A stretch of DNA of 32,000 nt from an uncultured Actinomycetes bacterium (GCA_963843975.1 CAWJMG010000003.1:1290001-1322000); one strand, 5' to 3'; shown: positions 1 through 26,921, counted from the first letter of the stretch. The notes: generated from the letters alone by a model not told the origin. Made by a program: numbers and translations.

Positions 1-87
1 CGAGGGCTCCGCGCAGGACCGCCCACGGCACGCCGGACTGCTCGAGCGCGGTGAAGGCGGCGGAGAGGTCAAGGTGCACGGTGGACA
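1..87 (-). CDS. 5' end of a CDS running off the left edge (MSTVHLDLSAAFTALEQSGVPWAVLRGAL...), product unknown
   Basis: ATG at 87..85 on the minus strand. 29 codons to the window edge, 27 with G/C in the third position. No obvious SD. Absent from the ORF track because there is no stop in the window. Confidence 0.35.
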
Positions 88-138
88 TGGCGCTGGCGTC
101 CGCGGCAGTGCCGACCTCGTCCGAGGGGGACGTGACCA

Positions 139-2991
139 CTACGACAGGACCTCGATCGCGTTGACCTGCGGGTTGTCCGTCTTGCGACCGAAGGTGATGA
201 CGATCGGGCTGCCGGTCGTGACCGTGAACGTCTTCACGATTCCCCGCTTCGCACCGCCTGCCGCCGACACGATGTCGAAGCCGGTGAGGACCTTGGTGCC
301 GTTGATGGACACATCGAAGACCCGCTTGCCCGTGGCGGTCCAGTAGGTCTCGGCGAAGTAGAGCCGGACGGTGTACGTCTTCAGCCCGTTGACCGGCATG
401 GTCCAGATCATGTTCTTGCCGCCGGACAGGTCGTAGCGCGAGCTCTGGAAGAGCGCGGCCGGCGTCCCCGCGGGGATGGACGGGTCGGACACGTTGATGG
501 CCGAGGTCGTCGTCGCGACGCCCGTCTTGGTCGACCCGGAGTTGGACCAGGGCGACCGCGACGTGGCGGTGTCGACGAGCCAGCCGCCCGTGAGCGCGGC
601 GCCGCCGGCGTTGACGCGGTCGAGCGGCGTCAGTGCCGGAGCGGGGCTCACGACCACGGTGGTGCTCGCGGAGGTCGAGCCTCCCGCGTTGGTCGCGGTC
701 AGGGTCACGGTGTAGGTCCCTGCCGCCGTGAAGGTGTGCGACGGGCTCTGAGCCGTGCTGGTGCCGCCGTCGCCGAAGTCCCACGCCCACGACGTCGCAC
801 CGCCGGTCGAGGTGTTCGCGAACGTCACTGCGAGCGGCGCGCTGCCCGAGGTGGCCGACGCCGTGAACGACGCGGAGGGAGCCGCCGGGAGGCTGACGTC
901 CACGGTGGTGCTCGCGGAGGTCGAGCCGCCTGCGTTGGTCGCGGTGAGCGTGACGGTGTAGGACCCGACGGCCGTGAACGTGTGCGACGGGTTGCGCGAG
1001 GTGCTCGCGCCGCCGTCGCCGAAGTCCCACGCCCACGACGTCGCGCCGCCGGTCGAGGTGTCGGTGAACGACACCGCCAGGGGCACGGTGCCGGACGTGG
1101 CCGACGCCGTGAACGACGCGGTGGGTGCGACGGGGGCCGCTACGTCGACGGTGGTGGTGGCCGTGGTGGAGCCGCCGGCGTTGGTGGCGGTGAGCGTGAC
1201 GGTGTACGAGCCCGATGCTGAGAACGTGTGCGAGGGGCTGCGCGAGGTGCTGGTGCCGCCGTCGCCGAAGTCCCACGTCCATGAAGTGGGGGCACCGGTC
1301 GACGTATCGGTGAACGACACGGGGAGCGGTGCGGTGCCGGACGTGGTCGACGCCGTGAACGACGCAGTGGGCGCGACGGGCGCTCCCACCTGGATGACGG
1401 TGGTGGCCGTCGTCGAGCCGCCGTCGTTCGTCGCGGTGAGCGTGACGGTGTAGGCGCCGGACGCGCTGAACGTGTGCGACGGGTTGCGCGACGTGCTCGT
1501 GCCGCCGTCGCCGAAGTCCCACGCCCACGACGTCGCACCGCCGGTGGACGTGTCGCTGAACGACACGGGAAGCGGTGCCGTGCCGGACGTCGTCGACGAC
1601 GTGAACGACGCGGTGGGCGGCGTGACACCGCCGAAGTCGGCGAACCAGTAGCGGGGGCTCGTCTCCGTCGCCGCCAGCACGAGCACGCCCGATGCGGCGG
1701 TCGCCGGCAGCTTGGCCGACGTCGCGTTGTTCATCGAGGCGTTCGACGCCTCGCGCAGCACCGGCACGCCCGCGCCCGAGAACGACAGTGCCGAGAGGGA
1801 GCTCGACTTCTCGTAGACCGTGCCCTGGAACGCCACGATGCCGGCTGTCGAGGGACCGGTGTAGAAGGCGTGGAGCTGGTCGTCGGCCGGGTCTACGACC
1901 ACCATGGGCCGAGTGCCCGAGTCGGCGACGGTGGCGAACGGCGCGGTCGTCCAGGTGCCCGAGGCCGGGGTGTAGACGGCGGCGACGAGCAGCGGGTCGG
2001 TGGGCACGGACGGCGAGGCGTCGTTGCGGCTCGTCTTGAGCACCACGACGACGCGCTGGGCCGGGTCACCCGGGATCGCGCGCAGGTTGAGGTGGTCGTC
2101 GGACATCAGCGTGCCGGACACGATGGGTGTCGCCGTCCACGTGCTCGTGGTGTCCACCCGCCGGGCCGACCACACCTGCCCGGTGGCCTGGTTGCTCCAG
2201 GCCAGCGTCGTCACGCCGTCCGCCGAGACGATCGCGGAGATGTCGTCGGAGGTGAGCGACGTCGCGGTCGCGGAGTCGGTGGTGGTGAGGTTGTTCATCA
2301 ACGGGATGAAGCTCGTGCCGAACAGCACCGACGCGGCGTCGGCCGACGCCGTGGTCTGCGCGAGGTAGACGCGCTTGTTGAGGGTCCAGGTCGCCCAGAT
2401 CCTGCCGAGCGCGTTCTGCGCGATCGTGAGCGCCTCGACCGACGTGCCGGTGATGCTGATCGGGAACCCGGCGTCGGGAGTCCAGGTCGAGCCGTCCCAC
2501 GAGTAGCGGAACAGCCGCGCGGGCTCCAGCGCCGAGGTCGTCGTGGAGCTCGCAGCCACGGCGTGCGACGCGACGAACAGGTGCGTGCCGTTCCAGAGGA
2601 CGTCGGCCTGGGTGGCTCCGCGGGTGTCGAGATCGACGCCGGTGTCGACCCAGGTGCCGGCCGCACGGTCGAGGCGGTGGATGCGGTATCCGCCGGTGAC
2701 CGGTGATGCCATCGAGGCCCACCACGAGCCGAAGGCATACCAGAGCTTGCTCTCGGGCTTGGGCGCCGTCGGTGCAGCGGTGGCGAAGCCGGCCAGGCTC
2801 GCGCCGGGGGTGCCGATGTCGCCGGGTGCCGCGCTGGCGGCAGGGGCTGCGACGAAGGAGACCGCCACGAGGAGGGTGGCGGTGAGGCTGGCCACGAGCG
2901 AGGCGGCCACGAGGCGGGTGCTCCGGCGCGCGACGGGACCGCCCCCGGGCTTGCGCGCGGTGGTCCCCGTGGTCGTTCGTCGCCCGTTCAT
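139..2991 (-). CDS. Secreted multidomain protein, paralog 1: signal peptide + unassigned ~400-aa Asp-box-like domain + 4 PKD repeats + C-terminal malectin-like carbohydrate-binding module
   Basis: 950-codon ORF with strong GC3 bias. N-terminus has an Arg-rich n-region, a hydrophobic core (LVAASLVASLTATLLVAVSFVAA) and an AASA|AP cleavage-like site. aa ~56-447 is a domain shared with the three downstream paralogs (KPESKLWYAFGSWWASMAS..YRIHRLD..). aa 460-787 holds four 82-aa PKD units (SWAWDFGDGG..YTVTLTATN). aa 788-950 is malectin-like (RVNAGG..YTVRLYFAETYW..GKRVFDVSINGTKVLTGFDI). Confidence 0.9.
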   Translation of the reverse strand: MNGRRTTTGTTARKPGGGPVARRSTRLVAASLVASLTATLLVAVSFVAAPAASAAPGDIGTPGASLAGFATAAPTAPKPESKLWYAFGSWWASMASPVTGGYRIHRLDRAAGTWVDTGVDLDTRGATQADVLWNGTHLFVASHAVAASSTTTSALEPARLFRYSWDGSTWTPDAGFPISITGTSVEALTIAQNALGRIWATWTLNKRVYLAQTTASADAASVLFGTSFIPLMNNLTTTDSATATSLTSDDISAIVSADGVTTLAWSNQATGQVWSARRVDTTSTWTATPIVSGTLMSDDHLNLRAIPGDPAQRVVVVLKTSRNDASPSVPTDPLLVAAVYTPASGTWTTAPFATVADSGTRPMVVVDPADDQLHAFYTGPSTAGIVAFQGTVYEKSSSLSALSFSGAGVPVLREASNASMNNATSAKLPATAASGVLVLAATETSPRYWFADFGGVTPPTASFTSSTTSGTAPLPVSFSDTSTGGATSWAWDFGDGGTSTSRNPSHTFSASGAYTVTLTATNDGGSTTATTVIQVGAPVAPTASFTASTTSGTAPLPVSFTDTSTGAPTSWTWDFGDGGTSTSRSPSHTFSASGSYTVTLTATNAGGSTTATTTVDVAAPVAPTASFTASATSGTVPLAVSFTDTSTGGATSWAWDFGDGGASTSRNPSHTFTAVGSYTVTLTATNAGGSTSASTTVDVSLPAAPSASFTASATSGSAPLAVTFANTSTGGATSWAWDFGDGGTSTAQSPSHTFTAAGTYTVTLTATNAGGSTSASTTVVVSPAPALTPLDRVNAGGAALTGGWLVDTATSRSPWSNSGSTKTGVATTTSAINVSDPSIPAGTPAALFQSSRYDLSGGKNMIWTMPVNGLKTYTVRLYFAETYWTATGKRVFDVSINGTKVLTGFDIVSAAGGAKRGIVKTFTVTTGSPIVITFGRKTDNPQVNAIEVLS
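631..1614 (-). repeat. Four tandem 246-nt coding repeats (PKD units) inside paralog 1
   Basis: The string cgccgaagtc recurs at 771, 1017, 1263 and 1509, an exact 246-nt period. Long exact matches occur between units, e.g. ggtggtgctcgcggaggtcgagcc near 658 and 904. Confidence 0.9.
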
Positions 2992-3121
2992 CGCGATGAC
3001 AGACTAGGGGCGCGGAGGCTCGGCGAGGGTGGCCCGAAGGGGGGATTACCACGGTGAGTCACGGTTATTCAGCCGTTCGGACCACTCCAGGAGCCTCGAG
3101 GATGCTGATCGTGTGACGCCC

Positions 3122-4078
3122 ATGTTGCGCAGTGTGAGCGTGGTGATTCCGACCCGGAACCGCCGGATGAAGATCTCCGCCCTGCTCGACCGCCTGCTGG
3201 CCGATCCGGGCGACCACGAGATCGTGGTCGTGGACGACGGGAGCCTCGACGGCACCCCGGCGATGCTGGCGGAGTACGCCGCCCGCGACTCGCGCGTGCG
3301 ACCCGTCGTCGGCCCGTCAGGTGGCGCCTCCGCTGCGCGCCTCGAGGGCGCGCGCAGCGCCACCGGCGAGATCCTCGTCCTGCTGGACGACGACGTCATG
3401 CCCGAGCCCGGGCTCGTGGCGGCCCACGCCGCGCACCACGTCGGCACCGACGACGTCCTGGTGCTCGGCTACATGCCGACGACCGTCCCCGACCCGCTCC
3501 CCCGCGGTGCCTTCGCGACGCTGCTCTACGCGCAGGAGTACGAGAAGGCGTGCACCGGCTACGCGTCGGACCCCGACCTCGTCCTCACCGCGCTGTGGAT
3601 GGGCAACATCTCCATGTCGCGGCGCCGCTTCCTCGAGGCGAACGAGCCCGGGCGCGTCCCGCCCTTCACCTACCGGCACGAGGACCGCATCCTCGGCCTG
3701 GTGCTGCGCGACCTCGGCGTCCACGGGGTCTTCGACCGCTCGATCCTCGCGCGGCACGAGCACCACCGCCCGCTCGACGCGTTCCTGTCGGACTGCTTCG
3801 AGAACGGCCGCGGTCGCGAGGCGATCCACCGGCTGTACCCCGACGTCCTCCCCGAGGCGTCCGACGACGTCTACCTCGACGGCCTCCCCGGCCCGGCACG
3901 CTCGCTCGTCGCGGCGACCCGTCGCGAGCCGCTGCGGCGCGCCATGGTCGCGGCGCTGCGCGGCGGCATCGTCGCTGCGGGAGCGGTCGGCTCGCGCAAC
4001 GGCGAGATCCAGCTCGCGCGCGTGGTGCGCAAGGTCGAGCAGCTGCACGGTGCCCGCACGCTCGACGCCGCGGGCTAG
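3122..4078 (+). CDS. Family 2 glycosyltransferase (GT-A fold)
   Basis: MLRSVSVVIPTRNRR..EIVVVDDGSLDGT..ILVLLDDDV (DxD) are classic GT2 N-terminal motifs. ATG 3122 was chosen. In-frame GTG 3113 lies 10 nt after GAGGA (3098-3102) and is an alternative. The track ORF start 3029 adds an implausible leader. Confidence 0.85.
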   Translation: MLRSVSVVIPTRNRRMKISALLDRLLADPGDHEIVVVDDGSLDGTPAMLAEYAARDSRVRPVVGPSGGASAARLEGARSATGEILVLLDDDVMPEPGLVAAHAAHHVGTDDVLVLGYMPTTVPDPLPRGAFATLLYAQEYEKACTGYASDPDLVLTALWMGNISMSRRRFLEANEPGRVPPFTYRHEDRILGLVLRDLGVHGVFDRSILARHEHHRPLDAFLSDCFENGRGREAIHRLYPDVLPEASDDVYLDGLPGPARSLVAATRREPLRRAMVAALRGGIVAAGAVGSRNGEIQLARVVRKVEQLHGARTLDAAG

Positions 4079-4101
4079 ACCCGGTCTGGAGGTCGGGCGG
4101 G

Positions 4102-6765
4102 TCAGGCCCGCGCGGTGAAGGCGGACGTCGGGAGCGACGGCAGGTTCCACCCGAGCGGGCCGAACGCCTTCACCTGACAGGTGTAGCGCCGGCCAGGCAC
4201 CAGCCCCTTCACCGTGCCGGTGCGCAGGACCCCGACCTTCGACGCGCCGTCGACGACGCGGACGTACGCCACCGCCGACGTCGTACCCGCCCTGCAGAGC
4301 ACCTGGTACGTCGAGATGGGCTCGCCGTTCATCGACGGCACCCGCCACTGCACCCTGGCAGAACGCGGGCCGACCGTGCGCGTCGGCTTCGCGATGCGCG
4401 AGGCGGTGGCGGTGACCAGCACGCGCGATCCCGGGGCCGCCGTTCCGGCATGGTCGACCGTGTTCGTCCCCGCGCCGTTGGTCGCGGTCAGGCGGATCGC
4501 GTACGAGCCGGTCCGCGCGTAGACGTGGCGGACCGTCGTCCCCGGGGCCGCCTGCTGCGTCGTGCCGTCGCCGAAGTCCCACAGCAGCGACTCGGGCGAG
4601 CCGTTCGTCGTGTCGGTGAGGTCGACGGCGAGGAGGTCCTTGCTGGGCCGCGCCAGGGTGAAGCCGGCGGACGGCGGCCCGCCGACGATCAGGCTCGCCT
4701 CGCTGGTCGAGGTCGACCCCTGAGCGTTCTCGACGGTGAGGCGCACCACGACCGGCCCGGCGTGGGCGTAGGCGTGGACCGGACTCTGGTCGGTGCTGAT
4801 GGCGCCGTCGCCGAAGTCCCACAGCCACGAGGTCGGCGCGCCGGTCGAGGTGTCGGTGAAGGCGAGCGCGAGCGGCCCGGTCTCGACCGCCGAGCCCCAC
4901 TCGAACGCCGCCACGGCCGGTAGGTACGACGTGACGGTCGTCGACGACGTGGTCGAGCCGCCTGCGTTCGCCGCGGTCAGCGTGACCGTGAACGTCCCCG
5001 TCGAGGCGAACTCGTGCGTCGGGCTCTGCTCGGTGCTCGCGGCGCCGTCGCCGAAGTCCCACGCCCACGACGTCGCCGCTCCGGTCGTGGTGTCCGTGAA
5101 CGCGACCGTCATCGGCGCCGTACCGGTGGAGGTGGAGGTGGTGAACGAGGCGACCGGCGGCAGCGGCAGCACCACGATCGTCATGCTGGCCGACGTCGAT
5201 CCCCCGGCGCTGGTGGCCGTGAGGGTCACCGTGCGGCTTCCGACGTCGGTGAACGTGTGCGTGGCGCTCTGATCGGTGCTCGTGCCGCCGTCGCCGAAGT
5301 CCCACGCCCACGACGTCGGGCCACCCGTGGAGGTGTCGGCGAACGACACCGTCAGGGGCACCAGGCCGGTGGTGACCGTGGGCGTGAAGGACGCCGTGGG
5401 GGCGGCGGGCAGGCGCGGACCGGAATCGGCGAACCAGTACTGCGGCGCCGTGGCGGTGGCCGCCAGGACGACGACGCCGGACGCCGCCGTGGCCGGCTGC
5501 CTGGTCGAGGTCGCGTTGTTCATGGTCGCGTTCGCGACGTCGCGCAGAACCGGCGTCCCGTCTGCGGGGAAGTCCAGGGACGACAGGGACGACGTCTTCT
5601 CGTACACCGTGCCCTGGAACGCCACGATCCCCGGGGTCGAGGGTCCCGTGTAGAACACGTGCAGCTCGTCCGTGGCGGGCTCGACGACGGCCACGGGACG
5701 CGTTGCGGACTCCGCGACCGTGGCGATGGTCGCGAGCGACCACGTGCCCGACGCCGGCGTGAAGACCGCCGCGCGGAGCAGAGGATCCGTCGGCACCGGC
5801 AGCACGGCGTCGTTCAGCGAGGTCTTCACGACCGCGACGACGCGGCCGGCGGGATCGCCCGGGATGGCGCGCAGGTTGAGGTGGTCGTCGGACATGAGCG
5901 GCCCGGACATCACCGGCACCGCCGACCACGTGCTGCCCGCATCGGTGCGCCGCGCCGACCACGTCGTGCCTGTCAGCTGGTTGCTCCACAGCAGGGTCGT
6001 GGCGCCGTCCGCGGACACGATCGTCGAGATGTCGTCGGCCTCGAGCGTCGTCGCCGCGAGCGAGTCGGCCGGTGCGAGGTTGTCCATCAGCGGGATGAAG
6101 GCCGTCCCGAACGTCACGACGTCGGCGTCGGCGGACCCCGTCGTCTGCGCGAGGTACAGCCGCCGGTTCAGCGTCCACGTCGCCCACAGCCGGCCGGTCC
6201 CCGTCTGCGCGATGGTGAGCGACTCGGACGACGTGCCGGTGATGTCCACCGGGAAGCCGGCGTCCGGGGTCCAGGCCGATCCGTCCCACGAGTACCGGAA
6301 CAGCCGCGACGGCTCGAGCGCCGACGTGGTCGTCGAGCTCGCGGCGACCGCGTGGGATGCGACGAGGAGGTGGGTGCCGTTCCAGAGGACGTCGGCCTGC
6401 GTGGCCGGGCGCGGGTCGAGAGCCACTCCGCTGTCGACCCACGAGCTCGTGCCGCGGTCGAGCCGGTGGATCGAGTAGCCGCCGGACGTCGCGGAGGCCA
6501 TCGACGCCCACCACGAGCCCTGCGCGAACCAGAGCTTGCTCTCGGGCTTGGTGGCGGTGGGAGCCGCGCTCGCGAAGCCGACGAGGGAGCTGCCCGGCGT
6601 GCCGAAGTCTCCGGTGGCCGCGCTCGCCGGGGCGGCGGCCGGCACCGAGAGCCCGACGAGCAGCGTCGTGAGCAGCGACGTCGCCAGCACCGGCACCAGG
6701 GCGCGCGCACGCGCACGACGTGGCCGCAGCCGCGCCGTGGCGTCTGCTCCCCGTTGGCCGCCCAT
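4102..6765 (-). CDS. Secreted multidomain protein, paralog 2: signal peptide + shared N-terminal domain + 4 PKD repeats + C-terminal FN3-like domain
   Basis: Start moved to ATG 6765 (MGGQRGADATARLRPRRARARALVPVLATSLLTTLLVGLSVPAAAPASA|ATGD). The upstream 286 codons of the 1173-aa track ORF are Arg-rich and overlap paralog 3. Contains KPESKLWFAQGSWWASMAS..YSIHRLD, PKD units at roughly nt 4425-5403, and an FN3-like tail at 4105-4401 (AKPTRT..VQWRVPS..YTCQVKAFGPLGW..FTARA). Confidence 0.88.
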   Translation of the reverse strand: MGGQRGADATARLRPRRARARALVPVLATSLLTTLLVGLSVPAAAPASAATGDFGTPGSSLVGFASAAPTATKPESKLWFAQGSWWASMASATSGGYSIHRLDRGTSSWVDSGVALDPRPATQADVLWNGTHLLVASHAVAASSTTTSALEPSRLFRYSWDGSAWTPDAGFPVDITGTSSESLTIAQTGTGRLWATWTLNRRLYLAQTTGSADADVVTFGTAFIPLMDNLAPADSLAATTLEADDISTIVSADGATTLLWSNQLTGTTWSARRTDAGSTWSAVPVMSGPLMSDDHLNLRAIPGDPAGRVVAVVKTSLNDAVLPVPTDPLLRAAVFTPASGTWSLATIATVAESATRPVAVVEPATDELHVFYTGPSTPGIVAFQGTVYEKTSSLSSLDFPADGTPVLRDVANATMNNATSTRQPATAASGVVVLAATATAPQYWFADSGPRLPAAPTASFTPTVTTGLVPLTVSFADTSTGGPTSWAWDFGDGGTSTDQSATHTFTDVGSRTVTLTATSAGGSTSASMTIVVLPLPPVASFTTSTSTGTAPMTVAFTDTTTGAATSWAWDFGDGAASTEQSPTHEFASTGTFTVTLTAANAGGSTTSSTTVTSYLPAVAAFEWGSAVETGPLALAFTDTSTGAPTSWLWDFGDGAISTDQSPVHAYAHAGPVVVRLTVENAQGSTSTSEASLIVGGPPSAGFTLARPSKDLLAVDLTDTTNGSPESLLWDFGDGTTQQAAPGTTVRHVYARTGSYAIRLTATNGAGTNTVDHAGTAAPGSRVLVTATASRIAKPTRTVGPRSARVQWRVPSMNGEPISTYQVLCRAGTTSAVAYVRVVDGASKVGVLRTGTVKGLVPGRRYTCQVKAFGPLGWNLPSLPTSAFTARA

Positions 6766-6893
6766 AGCCACACCACGGTACGAGGCGCAACGGCGAGGCC
6801 CTGACGGCTGGCCCCCCGTACGCACGAGGCGTGAGCAGGTTTCATCCGTTCGGCCCATGCGGGCCGGGCCGGACAGCGCCGAGCGTGACCGGC

Positions 6894-9077
6894 TCAGGCG
6901 CGGGCGGTGAAGGCCGTCGACGCGACGGACGGAACGTTCCAGCCGAGCGGCCCGAACGCCTTGACGACGCAGGCGTAACGGCTCCCCGCCGTGAGGCCCT
7001 TGACGGTCCCCTGCCGCGCGGCGCCCACGGTGCCGGCACCGTCGGCGACCTTGACGTACGCCGCCTTGAACGACGTACCCGTCCGGCACAGCACCTGGTA
7101 GGTGGTGATGGGCGCGCCGTTGGCGGCGGGAGCCCGCCACCTCACGGTGACGGCTCGCGGGCCGGGCAGCGTCCTCGTGGGCTTGGCGATCTTCGCCGCC
7201 GTCGCGTGGACGACGACCCCGAGGTCGACCGAGGAGGTCGGGCGGTCGACCGTGCTCGATCCCACCCCGTTCGTGGCCGTCAGGGTCACGACGTACGAGC
7301 CGGCGACGGCGTAGTCGTGGTGCACCGTGGCTCCGACGGCGGCCGCGACGGGTCCGGAACCGTCGCCGAAGTCCCACGTGACCGACTCGGGAGCGCCGGT
7401 GGACGTGTCCGTCACGTCGACGGCGAGGAGCTGCCTGCTGGGCTGGGTCACGGTGTAGCTCGCGACCGGGGGGATGCCGACGACGATGCTGCGCGAGAAG
7501 GTCGAGGGCGGCCCGCTCGCGTTGTCGACCGTCAGCCTCACGACCACCGGGCCGGACGTGGCGTACGTGTGCGTCGGGCTCTGCGACGTGCTCGTCGTGC
7601 CGTCGCCGAACGACCACTGCCACGATGTGGGCCGCCCGGCCGAGGTGTCGGTGAAGCGCACCGACAGGGGATCCGCGCCGGCCGCGGTCGAGAACGCCGC
7701 GAGCGCCGGCGCGCCCGCCGCTCCGCCGGAGGTGGCGAACCAGTAGCGCGGCGCGGCCTCGGTTGCGGCGAGCACCACCACGCCCGAGGCCCCGCTGACC
7801 GCCTGCTTGGTCGAGGTCGCGTTGTTCATCGTGGCGTTCGTGGCGTCGCGCAGCGCAGGCGTTCCCGAGGCGGGGAAGACCAGCGTGCCGAGGGGCGCCG
7901 ACTTCTCGTACACGGTGCCCTCAGCCGCAACGCCGCCGGCCGACGACGGGCCGGTGTAGTAGACGCGCAGCACGTCGCTCGCCGGATCCACCACGGCGAT
8001 CGGCCGCGTCGCCGACTCGGCCACGGTCGCGATCGTGCCCGCGGACCAGGTGCCGAGGCTCGGCGTGAACACGGCAGCCACGAGCAGCGGGTCGGTCGGC
8101 AACGACAGCGCAGAGTCGTTGAGGCTCGTCTTGAGGACGGCGACCACGCGGCGGCCCGGGTCGCCAGGGATCGCACGCACGTTGAGGTGGTCGTCCGACA
8201 TCAGGGGCCCGGACAGGATGGGCAGGGCGGTCCAGGTGCTGCCGGCATCCGCGCGCCGCGCGGACCAGGTCTGGCCTGTGACCTGGTTGCTCCATACCAG
8301 CGTCGTCACGCCGTCGGCGGACACCACCGTGGAGACGTCGTCCGCGTCGAGGGTGGTCGCTGCGGTCGAGTCGGCGGCGAGGAGGTTGCCCATCGTCGGG
8401 ATGCCGGCGCTGCCGAACGCGACCGCTGCGGCGTCCGCCGACCCGGTGGTCTGGGCGACGTACACCCGGCGGTTCTTGGTCCAGGTGGCCCAGATCCGGC
8501 CGGCCGAGGTCTGCGCGATCGTGAGCGACTCGGCCGACGTGTCGGTGATCGTCACCGGGAACCCGGCGTCGAGCGTCCAGGTCGTGCCGGTCCAGGAGTA
8601 GCGCAGCAGCCGAGCCGGCTCCACGGTCGAGGTGGCCGTGGAGCTCGAGGCCACGGCGTGCGAGGCGACGAACAGGTGCGCCCCGTTCCACAGCGTGTCC
8701 GACTGCGTGGCGCCGCGGGCGTCCAGGACGACGCCGGTGTCCACCCAGGTGCGGGTCGGACGGTCGAGCCGGTGGATCGTGTAGCCGGTCGCCGATGCCA
8801 TCGACGCCCACCACCAGCCGTTGGCGAACCAGAGCTTGCTCTCGGGCTTCGCCGCAGTGGGGGTCGTGCTCGCGAAGCCTGCGAGCGAGGCCCCGCGGGT
8901 GCCGGCGTCCCCGGTGGCGGCCTGAGCGGCAGGGGCCGTCACGACCGACACGGCCACGAGCGCCCCCGCGACGAGCGCCGTGACCACGGCGGGAACCGTC
9001 GCTCTCCGCAGTCCGCGGGCGACGGAGAGTGGTTGCGGCGCAGGGGAAATCGGCGCCCTGCCCACCCTCTGGCTCAT
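6894..9077 (-). CDS. Secreted multidomain protein, paralog 3: signal peptide + shared N-terminal domain + 2 PKD repeats + FN3-like domain
   Basis: 727-codon ORF. Signal peptide ..VTALVAGALVAVSVVTAPAAQA|ATGD. Contains KPESKLWFANGWWWASMAS..YTIHRLD. Two PKD units at roughly nt 7210-7700. FN3-like tail at 6897-7193 ending TAFTARA. Confidence 0.88.
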   Translation of the reverse strand: MSQRVGRAPISPAPQPLSVARGLRRATVPAVVTALVAGALVAVSVVTAPAAQAATGDAGTRGASLAGFASTTPTAAKPESKLWFANGWWWASMASATGYTIHRLDRPTRTWVDTGVVLDARGATQSDTLWNGAHLFVASHAVASSSTATSTVEPARLLRYSWTGTTWTLDAGFPVTITDTSAESLTIAQTSAGRIWATWTKNRRVYVAQTTGSADAAAVAFGSAGIPTMGNLLAADSTAATTLDADDVSTVVSADGVTTLVWSNQVTGQTWSARRADAGSTWTALPILSGPLMSDDHLNVRAIPGDPGRRVVAVLKTSLNDSALSLPTDPLLVAAVFTPSLGTWSAGTIATVAESATRPIAVVDPASDVLRVYYTGPSSAGGVAAEGTVYEKSAPLGTLVFPASGTPALRDATNATMNNATSTKQAVSGASGVVVLAATEAAPRYWFATSGGAAGAPALAAFSTAAGADPLSVRFTDTSAGRPTSWQWSFGDGTTSTSQSPTHTYATSGPVVVRLTVDNASGPPSTFSRSIVVGIPPVASYTVTQPSRQLLAVDVTDTSTGAPESVTWDFGDGSGPVAAAVGATVHHDYAVAGSYVVTLTATNGVGSSTVDRPTSSVDLGVVVHATAAKIAKPTRTLPGPRAVTVRWRAPAANGAPITTYQVLCRTGTSFKAAYVKVADGAGTVGAARQGTVKGLTAGSRYACVVKAFGPLGWNVPSVASTAFTARA

Positions 9078-9136
9078 GCGGGCAGAGCGTACGTCACCGG
9101 GGCTCGCGGTGCAGGTGCCACCCCTGCATCACGCGC

Positions 9137-9170
9137 GAAGGGGCGCCCTCCGCGAGGAGAGCGCCCCTTC
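9137..9170 (-). terminator. GC-rich hairpin downstream of paralog 4 (intrinsic-terminator-like, no U tract)
   Basis: gaaggggcgc (9137-9146) and gcgccccttc (9161-9170) are exact reverse complements, giving a 10-bp stem and 14-nt loop. It lies 44 nt past the paralog 4 stop (9214) on the minus strand. Confidence 0.5.
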
Positions 9171-9213
9171 GTGCTGTCGAGCGGTCGAGCGGTCGAGCCG
9201 TCGATCTAGCTGA

Positions 9214-11550
9214 TCAGGCGCGGGCCTTGAACGGCGACGACGGGATCGACGGGAGGCTCCAGCCCTTGGCGTTGAACGCCTTCACGCTGCAGGTGTAGGT
9301 CTTGCCGGCTGCCAGGCCGACGACCGTGCCCTTGCGGACCCGACCGATCTGGACGGTGCCGTCCTTGGCCTTGACGACCACGGACTTGATGCTGCCCGGA
9401 GCGCGGCAGATCACCCAGTACTTGGTGATGACGAGACCACGGGCGCTCGGAACCTTCCAGCTCACGATCGCCTTGCGGCCGGTCGGCACCAGGCGGGAGG
9501 GCTTGGCGACGCGGTTCGGCGTGGCGTTGACGATGAAGAAGAACGTCGTCGTCTTGATCGTCGGGTGGTCGACGGACGTGCTGCCCGCGCCGTTGGTGGC
9601 CGTCAGCGTGACCTTGTACTTGCCGGCCTTCTTGTACGGGTGACGGACGACGGCACCCGGGGTGGTCACCGTGCGCGCCGTGCCGTCGCCGAACGTCCAG
9701 CGCACCGAGTCGGGCGCACCGGTCGAGAGGTCGGTGAGCTCGAGGAGGAGCAGCTGCTTGTTCGGGGCCTTGCCCGAGAAGCGGGCCACCGGCGGCTGGC
9801 CGACGCTGACCGTCTTGGTGATGGTCGAGGCCGGGCCCGTGCCGTTGTTGACGGTGAGCGTCACGGTCTTGGCGCCGCCCGCGGCGTAGGTGTGCACGGG
9901 GTTGGCGGTGTTGTCGACCGGCGAGCCGTCACCGAAGTTCCACGCCCAGCTGGTCGGACGACCGAGCGACGTGTCGGTGAAGTTGACCCGGAGACCGGCG
10001 GTGTTGTCGCCCGCGACCGGGATCTCCGCGGTGAACGCGGCGGACGGCGCGCGGAACAGGTCGTTCCACCAGTAGCGGCGCGTCATCTGCAGCGGGTTCG
10101 CGTTGAGGTTGGCCACCGTGGTGTCGGTCGCGAGGACGACCGTGCCCGAGGTCGAGTTCACGATCTGGGCCGAGACGGACGGGTCGGACATGCCCTCGGG
10201 CTTGCTGGGCGTGTCACCGGCGGAGTTCGCGGAGTTCGCGGCGACGACGGTCGGCGCGCCCGGCACGAAGGTGCTGATCGGCAGCGACACGCGCTTGATG
10301 ACGCCGATGACGTTGGTGGTCAGCGACGGGTCGTTGGCGACCGCGTAGAAGACGTCGAGGGTGCGGCGGGTGTTGTCGAGCGACAGCACCGGACGCGTGC
10401 CCTTGTCGCCCACCGTGGTGAGGGTGGCCGCGTCGGAGACCGTGACGTACCCGGCGTTGGTGCTGTTGAGCACCGTGCCGCCGGAACCCGGCTGCAGCTT
10501 GAGCACACGCAGCAGCGGAGCGCCGTTGTCGATCGGGTCGGCCGCGTCGTTCGAGGTCTTGATCGCGGCGTACACCGGCGAGGTCGCGCCACCGGCGGGG
10601 TCGGTCACGAGGGAGATGTGGTTGTCGGCGATCAGGTCGCCCGAGGCGATCTGGGTGCCGAAGAAGTTGCCCGTGCCGAACGAGTCGCTGACACGGTGAC
10701 GGGCGGCGTAGAAGCCCGGGGCCGGGGTCGGGTCGCCGACCGCTGAGTTCAGCGCTGTGCGCTGGTTGCTGAAGACGATGGTGACGTAGCCGTCGGCGGC
10801 GGTGATGGCCGAGACGTCGTCGCCGGTGAGCGTCGTCGCCGCGAGGTCGTCGGCGAACAGCGCGGTGTTCTTGGTCCAGCGCACGACGAAGTTGTTGACG
10901 AACGTCGCCGGGTTGACGCCGTTCGCGGTCGCCGAGGTGTTGGTGGCGTACGGGCGACGGTTGTAGACGTAGGTCGCCATGATCTTGCCGTCGGTCAGCT
11001 GCGCGATGGACAGCGACGACAGGCCGCGGCTCGCGACGATCGTGATCGGCCAGCCCTCGTCCTTGACCCACGCGCCGTCGACCAGCGAGTAGCGGGTGAG
11101 GATCGCGTCGGCGTTCGCGGTGACGACGTCGGTGTTGCGGGCGGTCAGCACGTGGCTCGCGATGAAGAGCTTGTTCGCGGAGGCGTTGTACAGCGCGTCG
11201 GACGAGGTGCCGTTGCGCGAGTCGATGACGACGTTGGTGTCGGTCCACACGGGCGAGCCGGTCTCACGGCCGTCGAGGCGGTGGATGCTGTAGCCGGTCG
11301 ATCCGGCGTTGCGCATCGAGGCCCACCAGGTGCCGCCTGCGTACCAGACCTTGTGCTGGGTCTTGGTGGCGGTGGGCGCAGTACCCAGCGAGGACAGGGT
11401 GCCGCTGAACGTCCCCTGCACCTGCCCGCTGAATCCGACGCTCGCGACCGCCTGGGCGGCGGTGGGGACGGCGACGACGAGGCTTGCGGCGAGGGCGCTC
11501 GTGACGCCCAGGGCCGCGAGCGCGCGTCCGCGCCTCATGACTGACTTCAT
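9214..11550 (-). CDS. Secreted multidomain protein, paralog 4 (divergent): signal peptide + longer version of the shared domain + 2 PKD repeats + FN3-like domain
   Basis: ATG 11550 (MKSVMRRGRALAALGVTSALAASLVVAVPTAAQA|VAS) is preceded by GGAGGA (reverse complement of tcctcc at 11559-11564) 8 nt upstream. Contains KTQHKVWYAGGTWWASM..YSIHRLD. Two PKD units at roughly nt 9530-10040. FN3-like tail at 9217-9513 ending SPFKARA. Confidence 0.88.
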   Translation of the reverse strand: MKSVMRRGRALAALGVTSALAASLVVAVPTAAQAVASVGFSGQVQGTFSGTLSSLGTAPTATKTQHKVWYAGGTWWASMRNAGSTGYSIHRLDGRETGSPVWTDTNVVIDSRNGTSSDALYNASANKLFIASHVLTARNTDVVTANADAILTRYSLVDGAWVKDEGWPITIVASRGLSSLSIAQLTDGKIMATYVYNRRPYATNTSATANGVNPATFVNNFVVRWTKNTALFADDLAATTLTGDDVSAITAADGYVTIVFSNQRTALNSAVGDPTPAPGFYAARHRVSDSFGTGNFFGTQIASGDLIADNHISLVTDPAGGATSPVYAAIKTSNDAADPIDNGAPLLRVLKLQPGSGGTVLNSTNAGYVTVSDAATLTTVGDKGTRPVLSLDNTRRTLDVFYAVANDPSLTTNVIGVIKRVSLPISTFVPGAPTVVAANSANSAGDTPSKPEGMSDPSVSAQIVNSTSGTVVLATDTTVANLNANPLQMTRRYWWNDLFRAPSAAFTAEIPVAGDNTAGLRVNFTDTSLGRPTSWAWNFGDGSPVDNTANPVHTYAAGGAKTVTLTVNNGTGPASTITKTVSVGQPPVARFSGKAPNKQLLLLELTDLSTGAPDSVRWTFGDGTARTVTTPGAVVRHPYKKAGKYKVTLTATNGAGSTSVDHPTIKTTTFFFIVNATPNRVAKPSRLVPTGRKAIVSWKVPSARGLVITKYWVICRAPGSIKSVVVKAKDGTVQIGRVRKGTVVGLAAGKTYTCSVKAFNAKGWSLPSIPSSPFKARA

Positions 11551-11760: not shown

Positions 11761-12675
11761 CTAGAGGTACCCGGGCGACCGGTAGCCGAAGCCGGCGGAG
11801 CTGCCGAACGCGTGCGTGGGCCGGGTGGTCTTGACGAAGGGCCAGGACGAGCGGTTGGGCCACAGGCCGGAGTACTGCCGGGTGGACCCGGTGATGTGGA
11901 CCTCGCTGGTCCGGACGGGGAAGCTGCCCGTGCGCCAGAGGAGGTAGGCCGCGCCCCGGCCGTCGATCCACACCCGACGCAGGTCGTACAGGCCGACCGA
12001 GGACGAGCTGTGCTGCTGCGGGGTCAGGAACATCCCCTGGTACTGCGTCGAGGCGGTGAGTCCGTCGACCAGCAGCGACTTCGGCCCGGACCAGGCCTGG
12101 ATGACGTCGGCGTGGTTGGTGCCCTGCGAGCCGGTGAGCAGCGAGCTGATGCGCACGTTGAACAGGCGGACGTAGGCGCCCGGGAGCGAGATGTCGATGC
12201 CCTCGGTCAGGCGCTGGGTCGTGCTCGAGATGAAGCGGACGCCCTCGACGTGCACGATGCCGGTCGAGTCGCGGAAGTAGGCCGCACGCTTGACGACCTT
12301 GCCGCTGCCGTCCTTCCAGCCGCCACGGACGTCGACCGTGCCGCCCATCACGACGACGTTGTGGCCGCCGGTGATGAACAGGCCACGGGCGTTCTTCCAG
12401 GTGCGGGTCGACGGCAGCACGATCCTGTAGTCGCGGGAGGTGCTGAGCTTGATCTCGCCCATCTCGTCCGTGACGCGGATCGTGATGGGCTTGGTGAGCG
12501 TCGGGGGCCGGCGCGGGAGCTTGGCGCTGGTGATCGTCACCGGAGTGAGCGAGACCGCGGTGGCGGCGGAGGCCTCGGGGAGCGCGGGGGTGGCGGGCCC
12601 GGCGACGACGATGCCTGCGGCGAGGAGCGAGAGGGCTCCGGCGAATGCTGCGGCGCGTGCGGTCGTCCTGGTCAT
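11761..12675 (-). CDS. Secreted hypothetical protein, possibly a right-handed beta-helix (pectate-lyase-like) fold
   Basis: ATG 12675 is preceded by AAGGAGGAG (reverse complement of ctcctcctt at 12678-12686). Signal peptide MTRTTARAAAFAGALSLLAAGIVVAGPA. Short repetitive beta-strand segments are present (GGHNVVVMGGTVDVRG, VHVEGVRFIS, GIDISLPGAYVRLFNVRIS). The fold assignment is by eye only. Confidence 0.7.
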   Translation of the reverse strand: MTRTTARAAAFAGALSLLAAGIVVAGPATPALPEASAATAVSLTPVTITSAKLPRRPPTLTKPITIRVTDEMGEIKLSTSRDYRIVLPSTRTWKNARGLFITGGHNVVVMGGTVDVRGGWKDGSGKVVKRAAYFRDSTGIVHVEGVRFISSTTQRLTEGIDISLPGAYVRLFNVRISSLLTGSQGTNHADVIQAWSGPKSLLVDGLTASTQYQGMFLTPQQHSSSSVGLYDLRRVWIDGRGAAYLLWRTGSFPVRTSEVHITGSTRQYSGLWPNRSSWPFVKTTRPTHAFGSSAGFGYRSPGYL

Positions 12676-12943
12676 GCTCCTCCTTAGCCAGGCGGGGCCC
12701 CGCGCGGATACGCGGCCCGTCACCTGCTGGATCGGCGTACGACGTGGGCGACCCGAGTCGTTCGCCTGCTCGTTACCGTTCCGTGATCAGTCGACAGCCC
12801 ATCACGGACCGCCGAGCGGCGTCCATAGCCCTGTCCGCTCAGCGAGACGCGGCGCTCTCACCTGCGGTGATATGTGCCCTCTCGCAGCTGTGCCGGCGCA
12901 GCAGGTCGCTGGACGGAGGTGAAGGGCGGCCGGTCTCCCAGGA

Positions 12944-13702
12944 TCAGACGTACTGCTGCAGCAGCAGCATCCGCACGACCCCGATCACGAGGATCGCCAA
13001 CGAGACCAGGGTGAGCAGCACCTGCACCTTCGGCCGCGTGAACTTCAGCGCGATGCTCGCGAAGAACAGGACGAGCGCGAGGAGCACGGCGACGAGGACG
13101 AACCGGGTCGAGGTGGTCGCGGCGACGTCGGCCTCCGCAAGCAGCGCCTCGGCGCGATCCGCCTCGGTGTCGGACGTGACCTGGGCGGGCACGACGTACG
13201 CCGGGAGGTCGAGCGGTGTGCCGGGCGGGATCGTGACGGGCACGCCGTCGGCGTCCAGCGTCACGCCGCCCACCCACTCCGCCTGAGCGGCCTTGAGCGG
13301 TGCGGAGAACCGGTCGTCGAGGAAGCCGGCCTTGCGACGGTCGCCCGCGTTGACGGCGTCGATCCACGACAGCCACATCTGCGAGTCGATGATCACCTGC
13401 TGGTTGGCCTCGGTCGCCGCCCGCCCCGAGTCGGCGCGCGCGATCGAGGACGCCGACTGCGCGTCGGACTGCGCACCGCTCCACTGGCTGGCCTGGAAGG
13501 ACGCCCACGCGGTCGCCACCGCCGCGATCGCGAGGATCATCGCCGTCCAGGAGTCGAGGATCCGCTGGCGGCGCTCCCACGGGTCCTCGGGGTCCGGCGG
13601 CGCGAGGTCCTCGCCGAGCACGACGTCGACGACCTCGGACAGGTCCTCGAGCATCGAGCCGTCGTCCACCTCGGTGGACGCGGCGGGAGGCGTCTCGCTC
13701 AT
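12944..13702 (-). CDS. Hypothetical membrane protein (acidic N-terminus, three predicted TM helices)
   Basis: 252-codon ORF with good GC3 bias. Hydrophobic segments are WTAMILAIAAVATAWASF, FVLVAVLLALVLFFASIAL and VLLTLVSLAILVIGVV. No family recognised. Confidence 0.7.
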   Translation of the reverse strand: MSETPPAASTEVDDGSMLEDLSEVVDVVLGEDLAPPDPEDPWERRQRILDSWTAMILAIAAVATAWASFQASQWSGAQSDAQSASSIARADSGRAATEANQQVIIDSQMWLSWIDAVNAGDRRKAGFLDDRFSAPLKAAQAEWVGGVTLDADGVPVTIPPGTPLDLPAYVVPAQVTSDTEADRAEALLAEADVAATTSTRFVLVAVLLALVLFFASIALKFTRPKVQVLLTLVSLAILVIGVVRMLLLQQYV

Positions 13703-13773: not shown

Positions 13774-15162
13774 TCAGACGCGGGCCTTGGCCCGGCGCGC
13801 TGCCGACCCCTCCGCCGCTGACGGTGCCACGGGCAGCACGGGCGCGGACGCGAGACCAGCGGCGGCGAGCGCCAGGGTCATCGCCTCGAGCGCGCGGGCG
13901 TCGTCGCCGAGCGCCCGGTAGACCTCGGCCAGCTGCCGCCAGGCCAGGGCCGAGTACCGCGAGGCCTCGACCGCGCCCAGTGCCGTGGCCGCCTCCTCCA
14001 GCAACGAGACGCCGATGGCGGCATCGCCGACCGCCACCGATGCGGCACCGAGCAGCACCAGCGAGTGCGCGCGCTCCATGACGCGGCTCTCGTCGAGCTT
14101 GTCGAGAGATGCCTTCGCGTGCCGCCGCGCGACCTCGGGGCGCCCGAGGAACAGCTCGGCACGGGCGAGCTCGGACAGGACCGGGCCGACGAGCATCGCA
14201 CCCGCGTGCTGGCGCACCTCCGGGAGGAGTGCGCGCAGCTCACGCCGTGCCTCTTCCGCACGAGGAGGGTCCTGGTGCAGCAGGATCCAGGCTCTCGAGT
14301 AGCGCAGTCGTGCCCGCACGAGGAGGTCGCTGCCGCTCTCAGCCCTGGCGGTTGCCTCGTCGGCGAGGCGCATCCCCTCCCCCGCGTGGCCGCGCTCGGT
14401 CGCGTTGATGGCGGCGTTCCAGAGCGCCTTGGCACGGTCGTCGTCGCTGCCCTCGGCCTCGAGCCGCTCGATGAGGTCGTCCAGGATCCCTTGCGCCCGC
14501 ATCAGATCGCCGCGTTCGTCGTACACGCCGGCGACCGTGACCACGAGAGGCGCGAACCCGGGCACGCCGTCGATGCGCAGGTCGGCGCCTCGACGCAGGG
14601 CGCGCTCCCCGAGGTCGACGGCGCGACCGAGGTCGCCCGCCTCCCGGTAGATGCGCACGAGGGACACGGTGACGGGGACCCAGGGCAGCAGCTCCGGCGC
14701 GGACTCGGCCGCCAGCAGCAGCCGCTCCAGCTGACGGGCGGCATCGGACGGCCGGCCGTCGCGCTCGAGGGCGGCGGCGCGCACCTCGCCTGCGCGGAAG
14801 AGCACCGGGTCGGCTGCAAGCGACTCGACGTCGGTCAGCCGCTCGTGCCACGGCTCGAGGAGGGCGACCGCCTCGGTCGGGCTGCCGAGCCCGAGCGCGG
14901 CCTCGGCGAGCACGAGGTCGTGGGTCGGCGCCGCCGGGGCGGGGGGCTCCAGGTCGGAGACCGGGACTCCCAGGCGCTGCGCCAGGACCGCCACGACGGC
15001 GGGGGTGGGCTCGCGACGGCCGGCCTCGAGGTGGCTGACGTAGCTGGGCGACAGGTCCTCGCCGGCGAGCGCGGTCTGGGACAGGCCGGCCCGCGTGCGG
15101 GCATGGCGCAGCCGAGCGCCGAAGGTGCTCGGCGCCCCGGTGTCCGCGCCTTCGCGAGCCAC
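13774..15162 (-). CDS. XRE-family HTH transcriptional regulator with a long C-terminal TPR-like domain
   Basis: GTG 15162 lies 4 nt after GGAAGGA (reverse complement of tccttcc at 15167-15173). The 22 codons upstream in the track ORF have poorer GC3. HTH segment: FGARLRHARTRAGLSQTALAGEDLSPSYVSHLEAGRREPT. About 400 aa of TPR-like helical pairs follow (YREAGDLGRAVDLGERAL, YDERGDLMRAQGILDDLI, YRALGDDARALEAMTLAL). Confidence 0.85.
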   Translation of the reverse strand: MAREGADTGAPSTFGARLRHARTRAGLSQTALAGEDLSPSYVSHLEAGRREPTPAVVAVLAQRLGVPVSDLEPPAPAAPTHDLVLAEAALGLGSPTEAVALLEPWHERLTDVESLAADPVLFRAGEVRAAALERDGRPSDAARQLERLLLAAESAPELLPWVPVTVSLVRIYREAGDLGRAVDLGERALRRGADLRIDGVPGFAPLVVTVAGVYDERGDLMRAQGILDDLIERLEAEGSDDDRAKALWNAAINATERGHAGEGMRLADEATARAESGSDLLVRARLRYSRAWILLHQDPPRAEEARRELRALLPEVRQHAGAMLVGPVLSELARAELFLGRPEVARRHAKASLDKLDESRVMERAHSLVLLGAASVAVGDAAIGVSLLEEAATALGAVEASRYSALAWRQLAEVYRALGDDARALEAMTLALAAAGLASAPVLPVAPSAAEGSAARRAKARV

Positions 15163-15199
15163 GTCGTCCTTCCGACCGCAGGGGCCGCCATCACACCAC

Positions 15200-15236
15200 G
15201 GGTCTGCGTGCCGACCCCCGTGCGGCACGCAGACCC
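15200..15236. promoter_or_regulatory. Perfect 14-bp inverted repeat in the divergent regulator/peptide intergenic region (operator or 5'-UTR hairpin)
   Basis: gggtctgcgtgccg (15200-15213) and cggcacgcagaccc (15223-15236) are exact reverse complements with a 9-nt spacer. It sits 38 nt upstream of the regulator start codon. Confidence 0.5.
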
Positions 15237-17122: not shown

Positions 17123-17222
17123 CCGGTCAGACTTCGTTGGTATCGCTCAGATCCTGGCCGGATGCACGTGCGCTCGGCCCCTCCCCCGTGCGACGGTGAC
17201 CGCGGGGAAAGGGAGGGTCCAG

Positions 17223-17538
17223 ATGCCCATGCACCGTGTGATCGCCGACGAGCCGTTCACCGTCGAGCTGCCGACCACCACGGGCGGCGCCCTCTACGTC
17301 CGCGCGTCGATCGGCGAGATCGAGCACATCACCGCCGTGCACCCGCTGGTGCAGAAGACCGGGCGCACGCTGCTGCTCGTGTCCACGCACGCAGGGTTCG
17401 CCGAGCAGGTCGAGTTCTTCCGCAGCAGCCTCGACGACGCCGAGCCTCGACGGCATGGACGGCGGGCTCGAGGCCGCCGTCACCGACGTCCTGTGCCGCG
17501 CGCTGCTGGACAGCACCGCGCTGGTAGACGGCGCCTAG
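17223..17538 (+). pseudogene. Small hypothetical gene requiring a +1 frame change near 17445 (frameshifted gene or sequencing error)
   Basis: ATG 17223 lies 5 nt after AGGGAGGG. Frame 0 has high GC3 through ..FFRSSLDDAE (gag at 17442-17444), then becomes Arg-rich with low GC3. The +1 frame from 17446 reads LDGMDGGLEAAVTDVLCRALLDSTALVDGA with high GC3 and stops at TAG 17536-17538, abutting the convergent gene. Confidence 0.55.
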
Positions 17539-18756: not shown

Positions 18757-18898
18757 TGCTGACCTCTGCTCGGTGGACGTGCGGCCGCCGCCCGGTCGGA
18801 CGGTGCCACGAGAGATATCGACCCTAGGCAGGCCCGCCTGAAGGGCGCCCCACCCGTCCGGACCAGCGGACGCCACGAGCGCGCAATGTTAAGAACAT

Positions 18899-20841: not shown

Positions 20842-20862
20842 CCGGCCCTTCTTCAGGGCCGG
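20842..20862. terminator. Short hairpin spanning the HNH gene stop between convergent genes
   Basis: ccggccc (20842-20848) and gggccgg (20856-20862) form a 7-bp stem with a 7-nt loop that contains the stop codon (tca at 20853-20855). Confidence 0.3.
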
Positions 20863-22379: not shown

Positions 22380-22521
22380 GGCGTAATCGTACACCTGTAC
22401 TACTAACCATGGAAGCCCTGGAGCCAGCAATCTTCAGCAATCCCAACCAATCCCGCCGATCACCCTGCGCCAGTCGACACCTCCACACACCGACACGGAC
22501 CTCGAGCGCGGCCGCCGATTC

Positions 22522-22561
22522 GGTAGTGGCAAGGCGTCACATGTGGCGCCTTGCCACTACC
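22522..22561 (-). terminator. 40-nt near-perfect palindrome downstream of the VOC/AraC transcription unit
   Basis: ggtagtggcaaggcg (22522-22536) and cgccttgccactacc (22547-22561) are exact reverse complements. The centre tcacatgtgg is itself nearly palindromic. It lies 48 nt past the VOC stop (22609) on the minus strand. Confidence 0.55.
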
Positions 22562-26917: not shown

Positions 26918-26921
26918 CGCG

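Follow-up and report, generated by a model that had tools for sequence, protein, structure and literature searches.

The window described here is a stretch of 32,000 nucleotides (nt) from an uncultured Actinomycetes bacterium (GCA_963843975.1 CAWJMG010000003.1:1290001-1322000) that carries, close to one end, an array of four paralogous genes for putatively secreted proteins sharing an N-terminal domain of about 400 residues. With a confident structural model and family-wide searches in hand, we consider it secure that this domain is a seven-bladed beta-propeller and that it represents a protein family of its own. The scenario that we favor, to which we give a little less than an even chance, is that the propeller is an exported enzyme acting on the cell's own extracellular polysaccharide. 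Export, a site on the anterior face of the propeller, catalysis and the nature of the substrate are the parts of this scenario that we infer. The family is new, whereas its fold and its kind of genomic role are known ones, and the find is not categorically new. The core idea of a preliminary description of this DNA, that the array encodes an undescribed glycan-related module, holds. The family is large, has no database model and is repeatedly found in the context of polysaccharide synthesis.

The array is laid out as follows (types A and B are described further below):

139..2991, minus strand: paralog 1, type A; 950 residues with a signal-like N-terminus, the propeller, four PKD repeats and a C-terminal malectin module (open reading frame (ORF) and Pfam)
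1627..2829, minus strand: propeller domain of paralog 1 (residues 55-455), the sequence modelled with AlphaFold2
622..1614, minus strand: four PKD repeats of paralog 1 (about residues 460-790); Pfam PKD_4 and PKD over four stretches, matching the 246-nt DNA repeat family D1
148..549, minus strand: malectin or malectin-like carbohydrate-binding module of paralog 1 (about residues 815-948); PF11721 at an E-value (E) of 1.5e-18, PF12819 at E 1.4e-6
3029..4078, plus strand: GT2 glycosyltransferase; Pfam Glycos_transf_2, E 1.3e-23, 84.2 bits, 349-codon ORF
4102..6765, minus strand: paralog 2, type A; 887 residues, propeller at about 5398-6603, four PKD repeats, FN3
6894..9077, minus strand: paralog 3, type A; 727 residues, propeller at about 7716-8915, two PKD repeats, FN3
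9214..11550, minus strand: paralog 4, type B; 778 residues, divergent propeller with insertions at about 10063-11394, two PKD repeats, FN3

All four paralog ORFs are found at the coordinates given by the preliminary description, each on the minus strand, and translations, pairwise identities and DNA repeats confirm them as paralogs. Over their full length, with alignments spanning the whole proteins, paralogs 2, 3 and 4 are 58%, 55% and 36% identical to paralog 1, and in the N-terminal domain 74%, 69% and 37% identical. At the DNA level, repeat families D4-D6 (about 300 nt, three copies, 72-76% nucleotide identity) are spaced 3789 and 2306 nt apart, which is the spacing of the genes. Similarity among the array copies is far beyond chance. 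The longest ORF for paralog 4 begins at 11622 with a GTG; the ATG at 11550 is a reasonable start, as its Met directly precedes the signal-like segment. The GT2 gene had been said to interrupt a same-strand array, and it does lie between paralogs 1 and 2 within a run of four co-oriented paralogs, but it is itself on the plus strand, divergent from paralog 1 and convergent with paralog 2. Translation may in fact begin at Met 32 of the listed ORF, and the best NCBIfam match of the product is EPS_EpsD, an exopolysaccharide enzyme (E 9e-35, below the family cutoff). G+C content is 69-75% throughout the window, and promoter/terminator, Rfam and tRNA scans of the region found nothing.

The architecture proposed for the four proteins, a signal peptide, PKD repeats and a C-terminal module, is borne out by Pfam matches above the gathering thresholds (PKD_4 99.7-253 bits, fn3 30.7-34.3 bits, Malectin 67.8 bits) and by signal-like N-termini. 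All four N-termini show an Arg-Arg n-region, a hydrophobic stretch of about 15 residues and an AxA site, features that we judged by eye and with a hydropathy script, and they are consistent with export, possibly via the twin-arginine translocation (Tat) route.

The AlphaFold2 model of residues 55-455 of paralog 1, built from a 76-sequence alignment, has a mean predicted local distance difference test score (pLDDT) of 95.1 and a predicted template-modelling score (pTM) of 0.94. Its 28 strands form seven four-stranded blades, with the N-terminal strand closing blade 7. Sequence searches agree that the domain is unassigned: (i) the first approximately 450 residues of each paralog had no matches in Pfam (E<=0.1) or NCBIfam; (ii) when 18 family members were searched against Pfam at E<=10 there were no matches on the shared domain, BNR-type models included; and (iii) searches of PDB sequences with the single domain and with a family profile returned noise only (ExoIII, E 1.9; human Sialidase-1, E 0.38), the Sialidase-1 match of the profile search falling on an Asp-box-like turn. 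In Foldseek comparisons with the PDB the best matches were generic propellers at a template-modelling score (TM) of about 0.6 and roughly 10% identity. AlphaFold and Foldseek runs, which had been suggested earlier, thus gave a confident propeller with no close solved relative. The blades are not sequence repeats of one another, as all blade-versus-blade alignments had z <= 1.8 and self-BLAST gave no off-diagonal match. The recurring G-[ST]-x-W and G-T-W motifs pointed out in the preliminary description do occupy equivalent places in the model, namely the hairpin between strands 3 and 4 of blades 1, 2, 4 and 5, but only one of them is Asp-box-like: the D-x-G-x-T-W core occurs once, in paralogs 2 and 3 only (RTDAGSTW and RADAGSTW), and in the family consensus, as in paralogs 1 and 4, this hairpin is degenerate.

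The family is large. A word-indexed search gave 149 relatives of the shared domain, and an exhaustive profile search over 1.84 billion cluster representatives gave 3082 clusters at 50% identity (E<=1e-3), of which 1717 were at E<=1e-30. A scan of one genome per species, which addressed the phylogenetic distribution that the preliminary description had wished to see established, confirmed at least 584 loci, mostly in Actinomycetota. Carriers include Arthrobacter, Pseudarthrobacter, Geodermatophilus, Micromonospora, Nocardioides, Georgenia, Longivirga and metagenome-assembled genomes (MAGs) of Chloroflexota, and the window's nearest relatives are found in a Nanopelagicales MAG (81%) and in Longivirga aurantiaca CGMCC 4.7317 of the Sporichthyaceae (75%; L003, with three copies). 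The KPESKLW...WWASM signature noted in the window is confirmed, and no other motif is as well conserved across the family. Source annotations name members after their accessory modules ('PKD' or 'DNRLRE/CBM96 domain-containing') or call them hypothetical. A tblastn search of the family against a phage collection gave zero matches, so an origin as a phage depolymerase is unsupported. P0121 and P0122 each contain a tandem pair of propeller domains, and in P0122 the type IX secretion sorting domain is weakly matched as well (E 6e-4, below cutoff), hinting at members beyond Actinomycetota and Chloroflexota.

Conservation was computed over 268 members and is given in the numbering of paralog 1. Sixty-five positions are conserved in at least 90% of these members, and those conserved in 93-100% include K78, S81, K82, D122, R124, D130, R162, D173, E186, D249, D250, Q268, D298, D299, H300, K319, T320, R361, K395, N421, K427 and Y448. 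We placed the conserved positions by mapping them onto the secondary structure of the model, a procedure that gives topology and not coordinates. According to the DSSP map, K82, D130, D249/D250, D298-D299-H300, R361 and N421 lie in the inner strand (strand A) of blades 1, 2, 4, 5, 6 and 7 or immediately ahead of it, and D173 is five residues ahead of the inner strand of blade 3. D122/R124, Q268 and K319/T320 are located in D-A or B-C turns, with Q268 and K319/T320 in B-C turns. With this placement the residues are predicted to face one side of the propeller, the anterior side, around the central channel. The anterior face usually carries the active site in propeller enzymes; the PL42, PL24 and PL25 lyases, for example, use a His and an Arg there (PMC8377490). 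Given that the blades are not sequence repeats, we would expect one asymmetric site rather than a multivalent lectin, and a single asymmetric charged set that is invariant across hosts with differing glycosyltransferases is enzyme-like more than lectin-like. As judged from sequence, the conservation pattern favors an enzyme over a binding-only module.

Two types of propeller can be told apart in the array. Type A comprises paralogs 1-3, whose propellers are 69-74% identical and which retain all of the conserved polar residues except position 193. Paralog 4 (type B) is off consensus at 20 of the 65 conserved positions, including S81H, E186S, D299N, K395V, N421S and K427A. In each of the relatives L001, L002, L003 and L081, type B is represented by a single copy, 52-77% identical to paralog 4, and type A copies number one to three. 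S81H, D299N and K427A are common to all type B orthologs, E186S and N421S to most of them, and K78, K82, D122, R124, D130, D173, D249, D250, D298, H300, K319, T320, R361 and Y448 are kept in both types. Since its orthologs share its substitutions and the invariant core is retained, paralog 4 is not a decaying copy, and we take the paralogs to be under selection. The pattern would fit two long-standing, related functions together with recent duplication of one of them.

The domains that accompany the propeller direct attention back to the propeller itself. In 25 multidomain members that we scanned, the partners were almost all non-catalytic (PKD, CBM96, LamG_3, Ig/cadherin, TIG and FN3), which makes the propeller the candidate functional core. 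By hand count, CBM96 is present on about 50 of the best 120 of the 149 relatives. CBM96 was first shown to bind alginate (PMC9971899). In view of its presence on phosphoesterases too (see below), it may simply tether various secreted enzymes.

The genes around members of the family bear out the claim that they keep glycan-related company, with PKD, malectin, CBM96, LamG, GT2 and Wzx/Wzy genes all found. In annotated contigs, five settings (L080, L081/L082, L084, L085 and L088) have genes for Wzx (Polysacc_synt) and/or Wzy_C, and also for GT2/GT4 glycosyltransferases, a Bac_transf priming transferase, Wzz, polysaccharide deacetylase, UDP-glucose dehydrogenase or sulfotransferase; L086 and L089 have GT4 genes only, and nothing relevant was found near the family genes of L079, L083 and L087. 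When ORFs were clustered, at least one category of polysaccharide-synthesis gene was present within 10 kb in 46 of 83 loci and at least two in 33 of 83. GT2 is the commonest identified immediate neighbor, at 33 flanks of 94 propeller genes, and 24 flanks are occupied by another copy of the family. These counts are lower bounds, because our ORF caller, with its filter on G+C content at third codon positions (GC3), misses some genes in lower-GC Arthrobacter loci. No recurrent sugar or phosphate uptake genes were found beside the family. We think it probable that the family is associated with polysaccharide synthesis.

The window itself is in synteny with L001, L002, L003 and L081, in which the genes likewise run from a regulator through a beta-helix-like protein, a type B propeller, one or more type A propellers, a GT2 gene on the other strand and a propeller-malectin gene to a cytoplasmic gene that we call X; the GT2 gene is at the same position in all four relatives. 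In L081, gene X (12082-13335) overlaps the stop codon of the propeller gene and is followed by genes for a Wzx flippase, a beta-helix-like/malectin protein, GT28 and GT4. The translation of 1-145 on the minus strand of the window resembles the N-terminus of L081 gene X by eye (L..AF.AL......W.VLRG). Gene X has a weak AAA_16 match only, and the related cluster c3 has a weak, sub-threshold Pfam match to NTP_transf_5. We read the window as showing the upstream edge of a Wzx/Wzy-type polysaccharide locus. Two further clusters recur near family members elsewhere: c3 (L054 12295-13647 and 16 other loci; about 450 residues, weak NTP_transf_5 and thymidylate-kinase-like matches) and c4 (L024 4895-7069 and 13 other loci; about 720 residues, hydrophobic stretches of membrane-spanning type, no Pfam match). 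Taken with the genes for ATP-grasp proteins, deacetylases and sulfotransferases, they point to a conserved and undescribed actinobacterial polysaccharide pathway.

There is precedent for glycanases encoded in loci for exopolysaccharide synthesis, in PslG, PelA, BcsZ, AlgL and ExoK/ExsH. These accessory enzymes are secreted or periplasmic, are encoded among synthesis, flippase and polymerase genes and are expected to trim or release the cell's own polymer; they differ from the new family in being TIM barrels, alpha/alpha toroids or beta-jelly rolls with proven activities, and we liken them to it by role only, implying no homology. Among propeller enzymes, the closest parallel in fold is GH145/PL42 (BT3686, BACINT_00347, BACCELL_00856, BACOVA_03493 and FoRham1, relatives of the PL24/PL25 ulvan lyases), in which the propeller is likewise seven-bladed and Foldseek gives TM 0.57-0.61 at E of about 5e-8 to 7e-7 (5mum, 4irt, 5mul and 5mvh). 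These enzymes are extracellular, act on polysaccharides that contain uronic acid and carry an Asp-box-type hairpin. They differ from the new domain in sequence (about 10% identity, with a root-mean-square deviation (rmsd) of about 6 Å) and in setting, since they belong to gut or fungal degradation loci whereas the new family is found in polysaccharide synthesis clusters of Actinomycetota. FoRham1 belongs to Pfam BNR_4 (PF15892) (PMC8377490), and BNR_4 matched neither the four paralogs (E<=0.1) nor the 18 members (E<=10). PL42-type lyases use a His as base/acid and an Arg as neutralizer on the anterior face, and the catalytic His is the posterior His48 in GH145 and the anterior His85, with Arg166, in PL42 (PMC8377490). 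The new family has an invariant His300 and Arg124/Arg361, predicted to be on the anterior face; equivalence to the GH145/PL42 residues is not implied.

A working model that brings these observations together is as follows. The propeller would be exported to the cell surface, where the PKD/FN3 spacers and the malectin module (elsewhere CBM96, LamG or Ig-like modules) would position it or bind glycan. Outside the membrane, its most likely substrate would be a probably anionic polymer made by the same cell, which it would cleave, trim, release or modify. We propose that this happens in one asymmetric pocket, centred on one face and lined by near-invariant Lys, Arg, Asp, Asp-Asp and Asp-Asp-His from different blades. 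Tandem copies and the old split into types A and B could provide related activities or specificities on one polymer, and in relatives the order of the array runs on into a Wzx flippase and more glycosyltransferases. Taken on its own, catalysis by the propeller on the polymer of its own locus is a step to which we would assign somewhat less than an even likelihood. A further-reaching possibility, which we regard as rather unlikely, is that the propeller is a new class of carbohydrate- or phospho-glycan-active enzyme for a dedicated extracellular step of Wzx/Wzy assembly in monoderm Actinomycetota. Such a step might be release or trimming of the polymer from its lipid-pyrophosphate carrier, or the setting of chain length, and the invariant Lys/Arg/Asp-Asp/His pocket would then recognize a chemical feature common to all of the polymers and not a sugar sequence.

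Several observations weigh against an enzyme for the cell's own polysaccharide: (i) no member of the family has a known activity, substrate or ligand, and full-text literature searches found no description of it; (ii) export of the paralogs is read from sequence features only; (iii) the placement of the conserved residues on one face comes from strand topology and not from measured distances, and the conserved E186, D367, K395 and K427 are probably on the opposite face in the model; (iv) the fold matches to GH145/PL42 are no better than that to the PLL2 lectin discussed below; (v) many Arthrobacter and Pseudarthrobacter loci have no polysaccharide-synthesis genes within 10 kb, and some Arthrobacter-type loci have a two-component system or a subtilase nearby instead; and (vi) phosphoesterases appear in two genuine fusions, Metallophos with the propeller (P0227) and the propeller with PKD, CBM96 and a beta-propeller phytase (P0177), and next to the family in L090 (9015-14904 of the Arthrobacter sp. 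D5-1 conjugative plasmid pAD51), where a member is divergent from a phytase gene that carries CBM96. A seventh candidate for discussion, an apparent fusion of Wzy_C with the propeller, PKD and CBM96 in P0203, was rejected (residues ~420-560), as a new Met and a signal peptide come after an Arg/Pro-rich junction. P0203 probably represents two adjacent genes merged by a frameshift or by the ORF call and supports adjacency only. As this case illustrates, fusion-based inference from high-GC metagenome proteins needs a check of the junction.

One alternative is that the propeller is a non-catalytic glycan-binding or matrix/adhesin module, that is, a surface scaffold that holds or cross-links exopolysaccharide. 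An analogue exists in the matrix proteins of Vibrio, in which propellers occur together with lectin domains. One of the best fold matches is the seven-bladed Photorhabdus lectin PLL2 (6rg2), which is similar in size to the new domain and gave the best target coverage (TM 0.60/0.69, the latter target-normalized; rmsd 4.1 Å). The partner modules, moreover, are all binding or spacer domains, tandem multi-copy secreted PKD/FN3 proteins are typical of surface proteins, and no catalytic motif of a known family was recognized. Against a scaffold, about 20 polar residues are near-invariant at less than 50% identity and in hosts with very different sets of glycosyltransferases, whereas sites that bind variable polymers usually vary. 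In PLL lectins the blades are repeats of one another and offer several equivalent sugar sites; the blades of the new domain, in contrast, are not repeats, and its conserved residues differ from blade to blade and form one asymmetric set. Separate carbohydrate-binding modules (malectin, CBM96) are also already attached. We consider this alternative unlikely on balance, while giving it appreciable weight.

It is also conceivable that the propeller serves catabolism, as a scavenging exo-enzyme whose targets are foreign polymers or organophosphates. It might, for instance, be a phosphatase or phosphodiesterase with phosphorylated glycans, polymers akin to teichoic acid or phytate-like compounds as substrates, and the link to synthesis clusters would then be secondary. 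The P0227 and P0177 fusions and the phytase neighbor on pAD51 speak for this, as do the many Arthrobacter loci without synthesis genes, the secreted NAGPA phosphodiester glycosidase encoded 6 kb from the array and conserved in L001, and the many Lys and Arg residues and paired Asp residues, which would suit an anionic or metal-bound substrate. However, only 1 of about 90 loci has a phytase domain next to the family, and 2 of the 25 proteins scanned are phosphoesterase fusions; the family hidden Markov model has no match in the phytase domains of L090 or P0177, the beta-propeller phytase model PF02333 has no Pfam match to the paralogs or to the 18 members, and there is no similarity to Metallophos. 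Uptake genes, furthermore, do not recur, whereas GT2, Wzx and Wzy do. We therefore view scavenging as improbable, and a phosphorylated polymer as the substrate stays a minority reading.

The suggestion that the domain is a sialidase/BNR-like propeller was right as to the propeller, but a divergent sialidase/BNR (GH33-like) exo-glycosidase is largely refuted and in our view very improbable: GH33 sialidases are likewise propellers, have an Asp-box-like turn joining strands 3 and 4 of a blade and carry polar residues where the inner strands begin, there is a single such hairpin in paralogs 2 and 3, and sialidases appear in the Foldseek list and in the weak Sialidase-1 profile match, but they are six-bladed with repeated Asp-boxes where the new domain has seven blades and one degenerate, unrepeated copy, they reach a TM of only 0.44-0.50 with an rmsd of 6-7 Å, no BNR/sialidase Pfam model matches at E<=10, and we saw by eye no pattern resembling the RIP motif or Arg triad.

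An enzyme acting on the cell's own polymer would be of interest for several reasons. Little is understood of the extracellular polysaccharides that soil and freshwater actinobacteria make, or of the steps that follow membrane passage in bacteria without an outer membrane. With members in cultured genera, a confident model and clear candidate active-site residues, the family is a concrete target in the search for new enzymes, and if it is an enzyme it could be useful for tailoring polysaccharides. If it turns out to be a binding module only, the result would still annotate thousands of proteins that are now labelled 'PKD', 'DNRLRE' or hypothetical.

The array is flanked by the following features, all on the minus strand:

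1..145, minus strand: start of the next gene downstream of paralog 1 (first ~48 codons), overlapping the paralog 1 stop codon
11761..12723, minus strand: secreted 320-residue protein with a beta-helix-like model, syntenic partner of the propeller genes
12944-13702, minus strand: 252-residue ORF between the beta-helix-like gene and the regulator; acidic N-terminal half, hydrophobic segments towards the C-terminus, no Pfam match
13774..15228, minus strand: regulator with helix-turn-helix (XRE-type) and tetratricopeptide repeat domains (Pfam HTH_31, TPR_MalT); cluster c29, also in L001 and L003

The preliminary description had drawn attention to a possible beta-helix protein next to the array. 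The 11761-12723 product has 22 homologs, all in close relatives, and no Pfam match above threshold. Its model is a stack of short strands with a core pLDDT above 90, and the Foldseek top 50 are almost all right-handed beta-helix enzymes or tailspikes. The strand stack and the make-up of this list speak for the description, but the matches are not significant (E 0.25-2, TM 0.15-0.35), and we refer to the product as beta-helix-like on the basis of the model. Its family (cluster c10) is present in L001-L003, L081 and L082 and flanks the propeller genes in every close relative, sometimes with two or three copies per relative and in some cases with a malectin module (P0280; L081 16738-18225). Further members are at 5082-6080, 16951-18660 and 18775-19899 in L001 and at 2729-3922 and 17157-18911 in L003.

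Farther along the window, 17539-18876 on the minus strand encodes the secreted protein with the NAGPA phosphodiester glycosidase domain (Pfam E 1.9e-18), which is 90% identical to the product of the L001 gene at the same relative position and may belong to the same surface-polymer system as the array. An ORF at 20853-22430 on the minus strand (DUF222 and HNH endonuclease), of a type common in actinobacteria, lies between two groups of genes. The second of these, at 22543-31183 on the plus strand, is separate and encodes a DUF6421 protein (E 4e-200), a short-chain dehydrogenase, a Beta_elim_lyase-type enzyme, a small PP-binding carrier protein, an acyl-CoA dehydrogenase-like protein and a truncated protein resembling class II aminoacyl-tRNA synthetases, a combination that we take to resemble amino-acid:carrier-protein ligase systems.

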